From the sequence record PP989839.1: DNA of 64,000 nt; one strand, written 5' to 3'. Positions within the stretch are counted from its first letter, which is position 1, and every line of letters starts with the position of its first letter. Under the pieces are notes generated by a model. That model was not told where the DNA came from. It searched no databases and was given only the letters and a program-made list of their open reading frames with translations. Of this stretch, positions 724 through 64,000 are shown piece by piece. Both the position numbers and the translations under genes were made by a program. Source of the DNA: Escherichia phage VTCCBPA_322.

Positions 724-3021
724 ATGAACGAAATGTTCTCGCAAGGTGGCAAAGGCTCCACTGGTATTCTTACCAATAAGCAAGCTATTGCCCGTCATTT
801 TGGTATTAAGCAATCCGAGGTTCTTTACTTCTCTGTTGGTGCTGTATTAGATGGTTATAAAGTCATTTATGACAAGTCCACTCAAAGGAGTTATTCCTTA
901 CCTGCTGGTATTCCATCTGGCACTACTGCTATTAGTCTAAGCACTGCTGCTGTACTTGTACACTCAGCAGGCAGTGAGGACTTAGGTACTTTGGCTGCTA
1001 CTCGTAAGGAATTTATAACTAAGCAGGAGAACTTTAATACAGGCTTTACTATTAGTACCCATAATGAGCAAGTAGTTACTCCTGGTGGGGTTTACTACTG
1101 GGCAGGGTCTTTACCTAAAGTTGTACCTCCTGGTTCCTCTATTGAGGAAACTGGTGGGGTGAATGCTACTGCATGGGTTAATTCATACTCCAATGCTGTC
1201 TTATGTATTAAGGATTTGCTGACACATCCACAGGGTGGCACAGTTAGTGTGGTTGGTTACATTTCTGGTACGGACTTTGGTGGTGGTGATTTTTACTGGG
1301 ATGCTACTCGTCCACGTAGTAAACATAATGGTATTACAGTATTCAGTCCTACTGTTCCATTTAGTGGTTTATATACGGATATACCGAATTTCCATGCTAA
1401 GGTTGGAGAGACTGCACCTGATGCCAATGGTTGTTGGGTGCGTAAGGACTGTGGTCGTAAAGTTCTAATGTCATGGGGTGGTGTAGATATTTCAGGCACT
1501 CAGCCAATGGATGCCGTAGTAACAAGTATGTGTACTTATGTGCATAATACTCGTCAGATTTTGGATGCTGATGAGAATGCTGTACTTAAGGCAGGGTTTA
1601 CTACCGGTACTCAGACCAAAGATAAGCACAATGTGTTTACCCAAGCTTCTGTAATCTTAGAGGGTAAGTATGTCACCATTCGTGGTAATGGGGCTAAGAT
1701 TGATACATATCACCCTGTCCACAGAGAACGTTCTGTATTTGTTCTTCGTAATGGTGGGTATAACATTTCTGGTTTTAAATGGAATGATGGGTACACTGAC
1801 TTTAGTACTTCCCCTACGGATACCCAGCACAAACAAGGTGAATGGTGGATGGGTATTGTTGCAGATGGTGCAGTTACTTTAGTAGCTGACCACCATGAAG
1901 TAACTGCTTCTCAGGTATTTGTACGAGCAGATGCATTTAATGCTACGGACTGGAATGAAAGAGTAACTGTACGGTATAGTAAGTTTGACTACATTACTAA
2001 CTACTGTTTCCTTAGTCGTAAGCTGAAACATTATGAGTTCAGCTACAATGAGGTTAAACACAATGGCCGTGAGTGGCATACTTATGGGGAAGCATGTGCT
2101 CCAACCACATACACCACACATACTATTATACGTAGTAATAACTTCTTCAATCAGATCGCAGAACAATCCTGTATTACTCCTGGGTCATACCATAAGTCCT
2201 GTCTGATTGTTAATAACCATTGTGAACGCTATCGAGGCATTTTCGTTGAGATTGGTTCTTCCAGTAATATCAGCATTCTGAATAACTACTCTTATTCCAG
2301 TGGTGAAAGGGATAGTTCTCATATCCTACTTGTATCTGGTGGGGTAGATGACGAACCAGAGGGTGGTTTGAATAACTTGTTGATTAACGGTAATGTGTTT
2401 GAGAGTGGACCGTATACGCTGCGGGAGTACAACACTGGTACTCCAGTTCGCAGAGGCATTACATTCTCTAATAACCACATTATTGATTGCCCTATGCCTA
2501 ATATGGGTAATGCTGCTTACCACTCAATGGCATTTACCAATAACTACTGCCAGCCACCAGCAGACTTCCCGTATCTGGTATGGGCAGGTAAGAATCCAAT
2601 TATTGAAGGCAATACTTTTGTTGGTGGGGTTATTCGTGCTAGAGATCTGGGTTATACCATTACTAACCCAATCATTCGTAATAACGTATTCCGTGATGGT
2701 AGTACTGTTCAGACATTCCCTGCATTAATTGATATGACTGACTTTACCCGTTTAGTTGCTGAGGGTAACGATGTAACTAATGCTACCTTTACTCGTGTAA
2801 TTGTTGATCCAGCCAACTGTACTTCGGTCGGGTTTAAACGTATTGGGCAGGCAGAGGGTTTTGAATCTAACCCAGCTACCTTGTATGGTGCTAAACTTAC
2901 GGATGTAATTAATGGTGATATTGTGATGAACAATAACCCAGGTAATGCTGAAGGTGGTTACGCATGGGTATGCGTAAATTCTGGTTCTAAACAATTTGGT
3001 AAAATTGTCGTAGCTGTGTAA
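724..3021 (+). CDS. tailspike / tail fiber with right-handed beta-helix (pectate-lyase-like) domain, putative depolymerase
   Basis: ATG with GAAGAGG RBS; 765 aa; Asn-rich rung segments (NNHCERYRGIFVEIG, NNLLINGNVFESG, FSNNHIIDCP, IRNNVFRDG) typical of parallel beta-helix tailspikes; strong terminator downstream. Confidence 0.65.
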   Translation: MNEMFSQGGKGSTGILTNKQAIARHFGIKQSEVLYFSVGAVLDGYKVIYDKSTQRSYSLPAGIPSGTTAISLSTAAVLVHSAGSEDLGTLAATRKEFITKQENFNTGFTISTHNEQVVTPGGVYYWAGSLPKVVPPGSSIEETGGVNATAWVNSYSNAVLCIKDLLTHPQGGTVSVVGYISGTDFGGGDFYWDATRPRSKHNGITVFSPTVPFSGLYTDIPNFHAKVGETAPDANGCWVRKDCGRKVLMSWGGVDISGTQPMDAVVTSMCTYVHNTRQILDADENAVLKAGFTTGTQTKDKHNVFTQASVILEGKYVTIRGNGAKIDTYHPVHRERSVFVLRNGGYNISGFKWNDGYTDFSTSPTDTQHKQGEWWMGIVADGAVTLVADHHEVTASQVFVRADAFNATDWNERVTVRYSKFDYITNYCFLSRKLKHYEFSYNEVKHNGREWHTYGEACAPTTYTTHTIIRSNNFFNQIAEQSCITPGSYHKSCLIVNNHCERYRGIFVEIGSSSNISILNNYSYSSGERDSSHILLVSGGVDDEPEGGLNNLLINGNVFESGPYTLREYNTGTPVRRGITFSNNHIIDCPMPNMGNAAYHSMAFTNNYCQPPADFPYLVWAGKNPIIEGNTFVGGVIRARDLGYTITNPIIRNNVFRDGSTVQTFPALIDMTDFTRLVAEGNDVTNATFTRVIVDPANCTSVGFKRIGQAEGFESNPATLYGAKLTDVINGDIVMNNNPGNAEGGYAWVCVNSGSKQFGKIVVAV

Positions 3022-3024
3022 ACG

Positions 3025-3050
3025 AAAGCCCCCAATTAAGGGGGCTTTTC
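3025..3050. terminator. intrinsic terminator shared by tailspike gene (+) and opposite-strand ORF (-)
   Basis: AAAGCCCCC-AATTAAG-GGGGGCTTT stem-loop followed by TTTTCC on plus strand; A-run gives U-run on minus strand. Confidence 0.7.
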
Positions 3051-3500
3051 CTATATGGAGTTCACTGTTTGCATTACCCTGACTGACACTGATGTTAGGG
3101 TAATTACTTGACCTGAGATATTGAACATACCCAGCTGGATACCATCTACCATAAACGGGTCTGTTGAACCGAGTGTGTAAGTAGCTAATACATTATCTCT
3201 GTTAGCAATGTCCGTACCTTGTACCTTAACACTAGCGTCTGAACCCACTATCGTAGTTCCATTGGTTCGCCTTGTTTGTGTTCTCCATTCCCTAGCTGTA
3301 CCAGCACCTCCTGCAATAGTTCCTGAGATACGTACACTAAACATTACCTGGGTATTTCTGGTTCTAACAGGAAACTTAAGATTACCCTCTTCAATTGTTA
3401 GTGCTGCTGTACCTCCAGGAGTTTTAGTCATGCCTGGTAAAGCAAAGTAATTGAACCAGGACTGGTCATTTACTGCCTGGTTCCCTGTCCACGTATACAA
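3051..3500 (-). CDS. hypothetical protein encoded opposite to the late module
   Basis: 450-nt stop-free frame (chance unlikely); TTG at 3500 or ATG at 3431 as start, neither with a strong RBS; Gly/Thr-rich product. Confidence 0.35.
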   Translation of the reverse strand: MYTWTGNQAVNDQSWFNYFALPGMTKTPGGTAALTIEEGNLKFPVRTRNTQVMFSVRISGTIAGGAGTAREWRTQTRRTNGTTIVGSDASVKVQGTDIANRDNVLATYTLGSTDPFMVDGIQLGMFNISGQVITLTSVSVRVMQTVNSI

Positions 3501-3520
3501 GTCCAGAAGGAAAGTATCTT

Positions 3521-3676
3521 CTAACTCGGTTGGGGGAAAGGTAGCAGTTCTGGTGGGATCTCTGAGATGTTATTAGCAGAAACTATTCGTTCCCCATAAC
3601 TTCCCACGACCAACAATCCTCCCTTCATTTTGCATACAACATCCTTACCACTTTGGAAAATATCTTTAATAGACAT
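3521..3676 (-). CDS. small hypothetical protein (51 aa)
   Basis: ATG at 3676 preceded by GCGAGGT RBS at 6-nt spacing; directly upstream of ORF 3051-3500 in a different frame. Confidence 0.35.
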   Translation of the reverse strand: MSIKDIFQSGKDVVCKMKGGLLVVGSYGERIVSANNISEIPPELLPFPQPS

Positions 3677-3800
3677 AGTTACCTCGCAGTCGATACCAGA
3701 CACTATGTCTGGATGTATTCCATCATACTAAGTATTATCTAAGAGTCATCTTATGATACGACCCTATTGGGGTTCCTAACTTTACAACTACGGTAATATT

Positions 3801-4130
3801 ATGAATGAATCGGGTGAACTGCTTCTAGTCAGACTGGAGGAACGATTGAAGACTCTGTTTGAGAACCAGACAAGGGACAGGCAGGACCGTGAGAAACTGG
3901 AGGAAACTCTGGGAGAACTACGGGATTCAATCAATGACATAGGCAATAGACTAAAGAATGTGGAGGATAGCTTAGCTAAGAATGAACCTACTATTGAAGA
4001 GTTCATCACCATTAAGCATAAGGTCGTTGGTGCCGGAATTTTTGGTAAGTGGGTATGGGCTGGGGCAGGTGCAATTATCGGGGTACTGGCTGCTGCAAGA
4101 CGGGAGATATTCGCATGGTTCGCAGGCTAA
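3801..4130 (+). CDS. membrane-anchored coiled-coil protein, possibly lysis-associated
   Basis: ATG at 3801; charged coiled-coil N-terminus and C-terminal Gly/Ala-rich hydrophobic segment (VVGAGIFGKWVWAGAGAIIGVLAAA); first gene of lysis cluster. Confidence 0.45.
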   Translation: MNESGELLLVRLEERLKTLFENQTRDRQDREKLEETLGELRDSINDIGNRLKNVEDSLAKNEPTIEEFITIKHKVVGAGIFGKWVWAGAGAIIGVLAAARREIFAWFAG

Positions 4131-4375
4131 AAAGAAAAGTAGAGTTAGTACCTAACTGGAAAAGATGCTGGAAGTGGGCATCAGTTCAAATTAGTACGTT
4201 TGGTTTAATTCTATTCTCTGCTGTAGATATCATCCAACCAATGATGACAGGATTACCTCGCCACATCCTGGATGATATTCCTCATGGTTCCAATATTGCA
4301 ATCGCACTGTTTGCCTTAAACATCATAGGTAGATTAATACGATTCCGTCCAAAGGAAAATTCTCATGAAAGCTAA
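4115..4375 (+). CDS. putative holin (two transmembrane segments)
   Basis: ATG at 4115 with GGGAGA RBS (ORF track used GTG at 4049); basic N-terminus, two hydrophobic helices, charged C-terminus; immediately upstream of endolysin. Confidence 0.5.
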   Translation: MVRRLKRKVELVPNWKRCWKWASVQISTFGLILFSAVDIIQPMMTGLPRHILDDIPHGSNIAIALFALNIIGRLIRFRPKENSHES

Positions 4376-5489: not shown

Positions 5490-7760
5490 ATGGAACACCA
5501 AGACACTTTTAAGCCTTTACCAGACCCGGCTCAATCAGAGAAGTTAACGGACTGGAAGAAGGAACCAAGTATCCAATTACTGAAAGGTGATCTGGAATCT
5601 GCTAAACCTGCTCACGATGCAATCATGGCACAAATTCGTGAGTGGAATGACTTAATGGAAGTCAAGGGTAAGGCTAAACCCCCAAAGGTAAAAGGGCGTT
5701 CACAGGTCCAACCTAGACTGGTTCGCCGTCAGGCAGAGTGGCGTTATGCTCCATTGTCTGAACCATTCCTTTCTTCTAATAAACTCTTTAAAGTAACCCC
5801 AGTTACTTTTGAAGATGAGTTAGCTGCTCGTCAGAATGAACTAGTTCTTAACTACCAATTCCGTACTCAGCTTAATAAAGTAAAATTGGTAGATGATTAT
5901 GTGCATAGTGTCGTAGATGACGGTACTGGTATTGCTCGTATCGGTTGGGAACGTAAGACTGTTAAGATTAAGACAGAAACCCCAGTCTTCCAGTTGTATC
6001 CAATTGAGAACCAGGAACAAGCAGATGTTCTTCAACAGGCTTTGCAGCTTCAGGCAGAGAATCCCCGTGAGTATGACGAAACAATGCCGGAAGATATCAA
6101 GGAAGCTGTTAACTACTTCAACGAAACTGGAGAAGCTACTTATGCAATCCAGACTGGAGTTACTGAAGTAGAGGTAGAGAAAGCACTGGTTAACAGACCT
6201 ACTGTTGAAATGCTTAATCCAAATAACGTAGTTATCGACCCAAGCTGTAATGGTGACTTAGATAAGGCTCTTTATGCAGTTATCTCCTTTGAGACTTGCA
6301 AAGCAGACCTTATGAAAAACAAAGACCGTTATCACAACCTGGATAAAATTGACTGGGAAAGTTCCAGCCCCATTACTGACCCAGACCATGAAAGTAAAAC
6401 CCCTAGCGATTTCCAGTTTAAGGATGCACTTCGTAAGAAGGTAGTTGCTTATGAGTACTGGGGATTCTACGACATCAATGATGATGGTTCATTGGAACCA
6501 ATTGTTGCTACATGGATTGGCTCTACTCTTATTCGTATGGAGAAGAACCCATTCCCTGATGGCAAGTTACCATTGGTAGTTGTTCCTTACATGCCACGTA
6601 AACGTGAACTCTATGGTGAAGCTGATGCTGAATTGTTAGGCGACAACCAGGCAATTCTTGGTGCAACTATACGTGGGATGATTGACCTGTTGGGTCGAAG
6701 TGCAAATGGTCAACGTGGTTATCCTAAAGGGATGTTAGATACCCTGAACCGTCGTCGATATGATGATGGGCAAGACTATGAATATAACCCAATGCAAGGT
6801 AATCCCAGTCAGTCCATTATGGAACATAAGTTCCCTGAGTTGCCTCAGTCTGCAATAGTAATGACTCAGATGCAAAACCAGGAAGCAGAAGCATTAACAG
6901 GTGTTAAGGCATTTTCTGGTGGTGTAACTGGTTCAGCTTACGGTGATGTTGCTGCCGGTATTCGTGGTGCACTCGATGCAGCATCCAAACGTGAGATGGC
7001 AATCCTACGTCGATTAGCTAAAGGCATGGCAGACATTGGTACTAAGATTTGTGCAATGAATGCTGTGTTCTTATCTGAGAAAGAAGTAGTACGTATTACT
7101 AATGAACAGTACGTGGAAATTAACCGTGAAGACCTTAAAGGTAACTTCGACATTGAGGTTGATATTAATACTGCTGAAATTGATAACCAGAAATCCCAGG
7201 ACTTGAGCTTCATGGTTCAAACATTAGGTAATACAGTTGACCAGACTATTACGTTATCTCTTGTAGCAAAAATTGCAGAACTTAAACGTATGCCTGACCT
7301 TGCACATGAGTTACGTACCTGGCAACCACAACCAGACCCTATGGAAGAACAGCTTAAGCAATTGGCAATTCAGAAAGCACAGCTTGAGAATGAAGAGTTG
7401 CAAAGTAAAATTGCACTCAATATGGCTAAGGCTAAAGAGGCTGCTTCTAGCGGTGACCTTAAAGACCTGGATTATCTGGAGCAGGAATCTGGTACTAAAC
7501 ATGCTCGTGATATGGAGAAACAAAAAGCACAATCCCAAGGAAACCAGAACCTTCAGATAACTAAGGCGTTGACAACACCTACTAAAGAAGGTGAAACTAC
7601 CCCCAACATATCTGCTGCTGTTGGATATAACGCTTTGACTAACGGGAACTCTATACCAGAACGTGACTTAGCTGCACAACAAGACCCAGCTTATTCACTT
7701 AGTTCCCAATTTTATGACCCTAGCCAAGACCCAGCATCGGCTCTTGGCATGAACTTGTAA
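5490..7760 (+). CDS. portal protein (N4 gp59-like)
   Basis: 756 aa; position between lysis cassette and scaffold/capsid genes; size matches N4-type portal; assignment by synteny. Confidence 0.6.
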
Positions 7761-58637: not shown

Positions 58638-58659
58638 TCCTTAAGCTGCGGAGCAGCTT
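58638..58659 (-). promoter_or_regulatory. conserved hairpin motif TCCTTAA-GCT-GCGGAGC-AGC; candidate virion-RNAP early promoter upstream of RNAPII operon
   Basis: 7-bp stem AAGCTGC/GCAGCTT with 3-nt purine loop GGA on plus (template) strand; shares core with sites at 63123 and 63897. Confidence 0.45.
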
Positions 58660-60126: not shown

Positions 60127-60377
60127 ACCTTTCTTAATGTCCCATAAATGTTATTATCGACAATACTCAAATCACAAAAACCAATCTCTTCTTGTCTCCC
60201 AGAGGATACCCAGATATTGTTTTCTGTTAGCTTAGGCTTCTTAGAGAAGCCTATTAAGGAGGTATTAGCACTCTTATATTGTCGAGTATATAGAGCTATA
60301 TACTTAACCCAGTGAGGCACTTGGATAGTATGTCCCATATATTCCACAGTCTTACCTGTAGGGTATGTAATAATCAT
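60123..60377 (-). CDS. small hypothetical protein
   Basis: 84 aa; ATGA overlap. Confidence 0.45.
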   Translation of the reverse strand: MIITYPTGKTVEYMGHTIQVPHWVKYIALYTRQYKSANTSLIGFSKKPKLTENNIWVSSGRQEEIGFCDLSIVDNNIYGTLRKV

Positions 60378-63122: not shown

Positions 63123-63144
63123 TCCATAAGACGCGGAGCGTCTT
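63123..63144 (-). promoter_or_regulatory. conserved hairpin motif TCCATAA-GAC-GCGGAGC-GTC; candidate virion-RNAP early promoter
   Basis: 7-bp stem AAGACGC/GCGTCTT with GGA loop on plus strand; same core as 58638 and 63897. Confidence 0.45.
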
Positions 63145-63896: not shown

Positions 63897-63916
63897 TCCA
63901 TAACATGCGGAGCATG
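63897..63916 (-). promoter_or_regulatory. conserved hairpin motif TCCATAA-CAT-GCGGAGC-ATG; candidate virion-RNAP early promoter for leftmost early gene
   Basis: 5-bp stem CATGC/GCATG with GGA loop on plus strand, about 40 nt upstream of start codon at 63860. Confidence 0.45.
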
Positions 63917-64000
63917 TGTAACGTGTAAGGTGGGGTAGGGTAGTGGCTACACCGTCAACATACCGGGGGGCTAGTTGAGTGTAAGGGTGTAGCCCCAGCC

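Follow-up and report, generated by a model that had tools for sequence, protein, structure and literature searches.

The closest described counterpart of the locus reported here is found in Shigella phage B2, whose gp45 is a 99-aa homotrimeric capsid decoration ('head fiber') protein that cryo-EM placed at the hexamer centres (PMC11654681). In Moo19, a phage close to N4 whose structure has been determined, the Hoc-like protein occupies the hexamer-centre site (PMC11654681). The neighbouring gene of B2 on the same strand, gp46, is the orthologue of the gene described below; gp45 appears in the published mass-spectrometry table of the B2 virion and gp46 does not (PMC11654681), and capsid binding has been shown for gp45 only. 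Together with Bp4 orf14, pSb-1 gp17 and WIC41543 of SP154, gp46 belongs to the protein family PHROG 17779, whose members are variously annotated as 'hypothetical', 'protease' or 'tail needle knob'. The literature on Gamaleyavirus tailspike loci (PMC11990801) makes no mention of the gene.

Here we analyse a member of this family in Escherichia phage VTCCBPA_322 (PP989839.1). The window, that is, the whole stretch of 64,000 nucleotides under analysis, derives from a Gamaleyavirus (G7C-like, N4-related, Schitoviridae) whose best matches in the phage collection are about 94-95% identical. Between the tailspike and lysis genes the initial annotation had described two minus-strand ORFs in different frames (3676-3521 and 3500/3431-3051), the first with a good ribosome-binding site and the second with no clear one, and both are present as described (Table 1). 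ORF A is preceded by a GAGG motif that is conserved in relatives, whilst no Shine-Dalgarno sequence was found for ORF B. The frame of ORF B is open for 169 codons, upstream as far as 3557, and ORF B therefore overlaps ORF A. The same annotation had the ORF pair and the tailspike gene share a terminator, and a stem-loop GCCCCC-AATTAA-GGGGGC with A/T runs on each side does lie at 3028-3045, between the two stop codons. A terminator scan assigned it to the minus strand. St11Ph5 has conserved it, and EC1-UPM carries a compensated variant of the stem (GGCCC/GGGCC). Likewise, the perfect hairpin noted at 3696-3712 is there and is unique in the window.

Table 1. Features of the split accessory gene and its surroundings in the window.
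Feature	Positions	Strand	Remarks
Tailspike gene	724-3021	+	Convergent with the minus-strand gene; stop at 3019-3021
Intrinsic terminator, bidirectional	3025-3049		AAA-GCCCCC-AATTAA-GGGGGC-TTTT; common to the convergent tailspike gene
ORF B (3' fragment)	3500-3051	-	Different frame; TTG 3500 or ATG 3431; stop 3053-3051
3' fragment, full open frame	3051-3557	-	Residues 49-208: linker and predicted TNF/C1q-like jelly-roll knob
ORF A (5' fragment)	3676-3521	-	ATG at 3676, TAG stop 3523-3521, 51 codons
Frameshift site	3532-3536	-	C5 run on coding strand; G5 on plus strand
U_UUC_CCC heptamer	3539-3533	-	In the frame of ORF A
Shine-Dalgarno GAGG	3685-3682	-	5 nt 5' of ATG 3676; conserved in relatives
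Hairpin CCAGACA-CTA-TGTCTGG	3696-3712		Perfect 7-bp stem, 3-nt loop, 20 nt upstream of ATG 3676
Sigma-70-like promoter candidate ATGACT-16-TATGAT	3749-3722	-	9/12 positions match
Downstream plus-strand genes	from 3801	+	gp63-like gene, holin, muramidase, spanin, portal

Comparison with relatives shows positions 3051-3676 of the minus strand to be, by homology, a single conserved 208-codon accessory gene of G7C-like coliphages in two halves. A tblastn search of the window with the 208-aa protein of phage nithesis matched both ORFs in two frames (joint E = 1.7e-111), residues 1-48 falling at 3676-3533 in frame -1 and residues 41-208 at 3557-3054 in frame -3. Since one nithesis protein matches both ORFs at this E value, the pair is far beyond chance. 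At the same position nithesis, UE-S5b, Bp4 and pSb-1 each have one annotated minus-strand CDS of 627-654 nt, 88-90% identical to the window, and the DNA alignment with these four contains exactly one gap, inside ...TCCC-CCAAC.... Moreover, an uninterrupted gene of 204-212 codons occupies this position in at least 11 Gamaleyavirus genomes and about 45 protein clusters, and the ORF was contiguous in every relative that we examined (5 phage records, 10 metagenomic loci and about 45 protein clusters). When the missing base is restored, residues 1-207 of the translation align with positions 4-207 of the PHROG 17779 profile (E = 4e-115), and the protein matches 45 protein clusters, down to E = 9e-39, most of them 204-212 aa in length and most from contigs of about 71-74 kb. 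With the members of PHROG 17779 the repaired gene shares full-length collinear homology (54-95% amino acid identity), position, orientation and a two-module architecture; those members are intact, whereas the frame of the window is broken by a 1-nt deletion. An uninterrupted ORF of about 204-212 codons is lacking in the window, which has this deletion and the stop at 3523-3521.

At the site of the break, intact alleles read CCCACC, CCCTCC or, in the closest relatives, CCCCCC, the others having CCA or CCT at the proline codon. The closest intact alleles, taken from metagenome assemblies (L023, with 93% nucleotide identity, and L024-L026), have six Cs, TTC CCC CCA. These six-C alleles read CCTTTCCCCCCAAC where the window reads CCTTTCCCCCAAC, with five Cs at 3532-3536. 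In the allele table L023-L026 are entered as CCTTTCCCCCCAACT and the window as CCTTTCCCCCAACC, and the nearest intact alleles as fetched, again L023-L026, read CTGCTACCTTTCCCCCCAACT against CTGCTACCTTTCCCCCAACC in the window. Because the nearest intact alleles carry C6 and the window C5, the lesion is a one-base contraction of a C6 homopolymer; judging from the codons of the other alleles, the C6 run had itself arisen by synonymous change. The initial annotation had offered, as one of its readings, a single gene split by a real or programmed frameshift near 3500-3520, and had suggested a comparison with related N4-like genomes. That comparison, in which the gene was conserved and uninterrupted in the relatives, bears out the split: both ORFs are collinear with one protein of the relatives, and one base is missing. 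The break lies close to the region named, slightly outside it at 3532-3536. Its programmed nature is what did not hold up, as every relative examined is contiguous and the closest have one more C.

We then considered what the repaired protein may be. It had no matches in Pfam, NCBIfam or PADLOC, and therefore neither the 'protease' label nor a defence role has support. Its N-terminal 45 residues match chain J of PDB entry 9d82 ('B2 Dec gp45'), with E = 0.009 by phmmer from the single sequence, E = 8e-4 for the family profile and E = 3e-8 by pairwise BLASTP, at 43% identity to the window protein. Within B2 itself, gp45 and gp46 are adjacent and show 49% identity over 45 aa (E = 1e-14). The homology to gp45 covers these N-terminal ~45 residues; beyond them gp45 has a module of the phi29-head-fibre type (PF11133, E = 3e-10), where the window protein has a TNF-like knob, and neither PF11133 nor any other Pfam match was found in the window protein or in gp46.

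An AlphaFold2 model of the monomer was made on P0001, a protein 94% identical to the repaired one. It has a pLDDT of 86.6; residues 1-45 form a small alpha/beta module, and a linker modelled with low confidence connects this to a beta-sandwich that starts at about residue 55. The top Foldseek matches were the tail-needle knobs of Sf6 and HS1 (3rwn, 4k6b; E 7e-6 to 3e-5, probability 1.0), and others included the exosporium proteins ExsFA/BxpB, the TNF-like lectins PLTL and BC2L-C (BC2L-C-Nt) and TNF ligands; in BFVD, an Sf6-type knob, C1q and collagen-tailed viral proteins were matched. Residues ~55-208 are thus predicted to be a TNF/C1q-like jelly-roll knob, for which the Sf6 tail-needle knob is the nearest solved fold. 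The Sf6 and HS1 knobs and the TNF/C1q-like lectins have the same jelly-roll (Foldseek E ~7e-6, TM up to 0.60-0.66 on the target), although their sequence identity to the knob of the window family is only 10-18%. Unlike a needle of the P22 gp26 type, the family has no coiled-coil N-terminal to the knob; the N-terminus is the 45-aa alpha/beta module, with no long helix. To our knowledge, N4-like phages have no P22-type tail needle, and the annotation 'tail needle knob' therefore describes a fold and not a role. In two distant homologues (P0041, P0042) the same domain is fused to collagen GXY repeats, which lends indirect support, by analogy, to the idea that the knob is presumably trimeric. Other distant homologues are located in tail-fibre or head-gene clusters of other phage families.

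On the simplest reading of these similarities, the intact gene product would be an accessory, capsid-anchored head fibre or knob on the virion surface. It would consist of a capsid-anchor module (residues 1-45), a short Pro-rich linker and the knob (~55-208), so that gp45 and gp46 types would have a capsid-anchoring module in common that carries alternative trimeric distal parts. The knob may possibly bind glycans. The minus-strand orientation is not odd for a head fibre, because these phages encode their Hoc-like decoration protein on the minus strand too. In the window, ORF A codes for residues 1-48 of the ancestral protein, and thus for the entire Dec/head-fibre-like N-terminal module, before 3 out-of-frame codons lead into TAG. 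Since the break falls in the interdomain linker, ORF A still encodes a complete anchor module. The proposed course of events is that the six-C run in the linker codons (TTC CCC CCA) contracted to five, and because of this contraction translation from GAGG and the ATG at 3676 would end after 51 codons, with no knob made except through trace -1 slippage.

The gene is found well beyond the closest relatives of the window. It is syntenic in the distant subfamily Humphriesvirinae (Ithacavirus B2, SP154), where the orthologue is 54-69% identical and convergent with the tail-fibre or tailspike gene. The same tail-to-tail arrangement with a tailspike or tail-fibre gene was seen in the window, nithesis, UE-S5b, Bp4, pSb-1, B2 and SP154 and also in contigs L009, L017, L018, L019, L020 and L022-26. 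The GC content of the gene is 0.43 vs 0.42-0.44 in its flanks. However, only 11 of the 33 matching phage records cover the gene, and relatives without it retain its traces. In St11Ph5 the terminator, ~45 nt from the 3' end of the gene and most of the hairpin survive; in EC1-UPM, ~80 nt from the 3' end survive together with a degenerate 5' end. This neighbour-like composition, the synteny in Humphriesvirinae and the remnants in gene-less Gamaleyaviruses together indicate that the gene is ancestral and has been repeatedly lost, rather than newly inserted. Moreover, decay could be seen in several forms: L008 has a TCA-to-TAA nonsense codon and a replaced 3' end, L009 and 10 similar contigs of ~71 kb have the 3' third replaced after CGAACCCATGG, the 90% cluster includes truncations of 136 and 191 aa, and internal deletions of the gene also occur in relatives. 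As far as genome comparison goes, the gene is thereby shown to be dispensable and to decay recurrently in relatives. Its last ~240 nt (95% amino acid identity) are also found, unannotated, directly after the tailspike genes of Ackermannviridae phages such as fGh-Ecl02, A221 and SKML-39. Because these 3' remnants adjoin tailspike genes, we conclude that the 3' end of the gene travels as a flank of exchanged tailspike cassettes.

This history bears on how the two ORFs are to be explained. The initial annotation had given a moron-type insertion as its other reading, and the accessory character, the opposite strand, the terminator and the promoter-like site of the locus do fit such a cassette superficially, as does its patchy distribution in the genus; the promoter-like site is a 9/12 match of a kind no more frequent in the window than in shuffles. 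The atypical composition and recent insertion of a moron cassette are not seen here, given the GC of the gene, its synteny in Ithacavirus and remnants that point to loss rather than gain. Nor do the halves behave as two independent small genes, for in all relatives a single protein is collinear with both, ORF B lacks a Shine-Dalgarno sequence, and its TTG start cuts the first beta-strand of the AlphaFold2 model. We find either explanation, a recently acquired moron cassette or a pair of separate genes, scarcely credible. With one gene and one missing base, the age of the lesion becomes informative. After restoring the base, dN/dS against four relatives was 0.05-0.10 for the whole gene, 0.04-0.11 downstream of the break (dS ~0.5) and 0-0.13 upstream, and no second lesion was found in the downstream frame. 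Since dN/dS is low on both sides and a second lesion is lacking, the break is either very recent or a base-calling error; as a mutation, the lesion is shown to be recent. The pattern is equally that of an intact gene, and the phage might truly have six Cs and all 208 codons, with one C under-called during sequencing or assembly. Measured against the closest alleles, the change is exactly one from C6 to C5, as in the classic homopolymer error, and the C5 allele was seen nowhere else: the exact frameshifted ORFs were not found in a collection of 15 billion proteins, and the frameshifted DNA pattern gave 0 matches in IMG/VR and 0 in JGI metagenomes; a search with the in-frame DNA pattern returned a pSb-1-like contig only. 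Yet of 63 nithesis proteins mapped to the window, among them the 3,584-codon virion RNA polymerase, none but that of the broken accessory gene changes frame, and 73 homopolymer runs of at least 5 nt sit inside uninterrupted matches, so that the assembly shows no systematic homopolymer errors. The gene is, moreover, demonstrably dispensable and broken in other natural genomes. An artefact thus seems to us possible and rather unlikely, and we favour, with a probability of roughly 0.6, a genuine loss-of-function mutation in a non-essential gene. It resembles other frameshift-inactivated accessory genes of phages in the single-base contraction of a short homopolymer, the premature stop and the intact downstream frame, and differs from ordinary homopolymer indels only in that the new sequence forms a -1 slippery heptamer.

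That heptamer raises the further question of functional recoding or phase variation, in which the C run would serve as a -1 slip site or as a slipped-strand ON/OFF switch, and the main product of the phage would be a 51-aa peptide with the anchor only, alongside some full-length knob protein, mirroring the short/long pair gp45/gp46 of B2, which have their N-terminal module in common. In the frame of ORF A, U_UUC_CCC formally fits the X_XXY_YYZ pattern perfectly, and a -1 slip on it would yield the ancestral 208-aa protein exactly. The two-frame arrangement was nonetheless found in none of the relatives, all intact ones being in frame at the site, and because no relative has it we regard the frameshift as not programmed. 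A stem-loop does begin about 5 nt past the heptamer. Its fold is not significant (z = -1.9), 8 of 200 shuffles giving one as good, and genomes that are in frame conserve the sequence to the same degree, since it codes for TELEDTFLLDL. In E. coli, strong stimulators bring slippage on C_CC.C-type motifs to a measurable level, whereas about 0.1-0.5% frameshifting is reported without a strong pseudoknot (PMC4066793). As for phase variation, the C tract, at 5-6 nt, is short by the standards of contingency loci. We judge U_UUC_CCC to be a by-product of the deletion with no programmed signal, and the C5 allele to give a trace of full-length protein at most; recoding or a switch is in our view improbable. 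A bolder version, which we consider very improbable, is a second type of Schitoviridae head fibre, with a gp45-type anchor and a probably glycan-binding TNF-like knob, whose expression can be switched by the C tract. Were it true, the C5 state would give the anchor peptide plus trace full-length protein via -1 slippage on U_UUC_CCC and would be revertible to C6, and a lytic phage would possess a phase-variable or leaky surface adhesin.

Overall, the recent inactivation that we favour is an ordinary event: the locus is a conserved, dispensable gene just after a one-base homopolymer contraction, or else a homopolymer mis-call. For annotation, this means that the two ORFs should be entered as one disrupted gene (a pseudogene, or a frameshift to be verified) and not as two hypothetical proteins or a case of recoding. 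PHROG 17779 proteins can now be described as a TNF-like knob joined to the anchor module of a capsid decoration protein that has been visualised, an architecture that predicts a capsid fibre or adhesin. The remaining interest of the locus lies in this domain assignment of the family and in its role as a recombination flank of tailspike cassettes; the 3' remnants of the gene in Gamaleyavirus and Ackermannviridae should be useful in mapping the exchange of host-range modules.

Lastly, we looked at the region upstream of the gene. Promoter-like sites in the window did not exceed the count expected from shuffles, a blastn-short search of the 124-nt upstream region against the window for a repeated promoter motif returned chance words only, and known RNA families gave only sub-threshold chance matches in 2950-3850. 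Of perfect hairpins whose stem is 7 bp or longer and whose loop is 3 nt, the window has 8 vs 4.7 in shuffles, and the hairpin at 3696-3712 is by itself not beyond chance. Close relatives all have it unchanged; in L017 and St11Ph5 its stem is down to 6 bp, in L009 it contains a mismatch, and L018, L020 and EC1-UPM do not have it. Diverged sequences that still have the gene can thus have it degraded or absent, and no covariation or compensatory change was seen in any compared sequence. Hairpin promoters of the N4 virion RNA polymerase have a stem of 5-7 bp and a 3-nt loop. We rejected an early promoter of this kind as the identity of the hairpin, since its loop and flanks differ from those of the early-type hairpins of the window: on the template strand the latter, at 58643, 63128 and 63903, show GGA in the loop and TCCAT or TCCTT ahead of it, whereas the hairpin at 3696-3712, read on the template strand of the minus-strand gene, shows CTA in the loop and is flanked by other sequences. 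Use of the sigma-70-like site at 3749-3722 would put the hairpin at the 5' end of the minus-strand mRNA or close to it, and an mRNA-stabilising role is at most conceivable. A block at 3722-3740, GATAATACTTAGTATGATG, is kept in the diverged contigs L017 and L018 although their flanks have diverged, and this conservation makes it a better candidate than the hairpin for a genuine signal on either of the two strands.

The likeness of the window tailspike to that of nithesis, a related phage with an intact knob gene, is confined to the N-terminal ~138 residues (61% identity); the receptor-binding part gave no alignment to the nithesis protein. Moreover, the last ~110 nt of the window tailspike gene had no megablast match among phage records, and homology to relatives resumes from the terminator shared with the knob gene onward. 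In Ackermannviridae, knob-gene remnants lie directly downstream of tailspike genes. One such 3′ remnant is found, unannotated, in Kuttervirus fGh-Ecl02, and similar unannotated remnants occur in phages A221, RPN242, PC3, PH4, YX22, SKML-39 and CAU_YEP3. They comprise the last 70-80 codons of the knob gene at 89-95% amino acid identity. These remnants mark an exchange of tailspike cassettes between members of the Schitoviridae and the Ackermannviridae.

Some relatives carry an additional small ORF after the knob gene, ahead of the tailspike; the window has none between these two genes. In Shigella phage B2, gp46 (the knob-gene orthologue) and the adjacent decoration protein gene gp45 are each preceded by a near-identical motif, and an intrinsic terminator lies between them. 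The two look like paralogous units, each with a separate promoter. Upstream of the window knob gene, the block GATAATACTTAGTATGATG is invariant even in two contigs with strongly diverged flanks (L017 and L018), and is a candidate promoter element for either the minus-strand knob gene or the plus-strand gp63/lysis genes.

In the gp63-like protein the N-terminal part is a coiled coil, whereas the C-terminus is hydrophobic and rich in Gly and Ala; Pfam searches returned weak coiled-coil noise only. In relatives it is annotated as 'tail length tape-measure protein' or 'tail needle protein gp26'. Both labels look wrong, because the ORF is the first gene of the lysis cassette.

Lastly, three perfect GGA-loop hairpins in the window are each preceded by TCCTT or TCCAT, with minus-strand early ORFs downstream in all three cases. 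These look like N4-type virion-RNA-polymerase early promoters and we regard them as candidates. The longest short-loop hairpin within the window, TAGGCTTCT-TAG-AGAAGCCTA, also lies within the early gene block, adjoining a GGAGG.

Coordinates of features in the window and in compared phage or metagenome loci (L-numbers)
Feature	Position	Strand	Remarks
Tailspike gene	window 724-3021	+	
GATAATACTTAGTATGATG	window 3722-3740	either	divergent intergenic region
gp63-like ORF	window 3801-4130	+	109 aa
AAGCTGC-GGA-GCAGCTT	window 58643-58659	+ (GGA loop)	
TAGGCTTCT-TAG-AGAAGCCTA	window 60233-60253		9 bp stem
AAGACGC-GGA-GCGTCTT	window 63128-63144	+ (GGA loop)	
ACATGC-GGA-GCATGT	window 63903-63917	+ (GGA loop)	
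Knob-gene 3′ remnant	L007 (fGh-Ecl02) 4001-4289		
GTATACT...C(C/T)(A/T)ACTTATA(A)GGAGG	L012 (B2) 5570-5608; 5950-5988		
Additional small ORF	L017 2136-2345; L018 912-1121		69 aa; Gamaleyavirus-like contigs
Additional small ORF	L012 6662-6982 (B2 gp47); L019 2176-2496		106-aa DUF7740 protein; Ithacavirus
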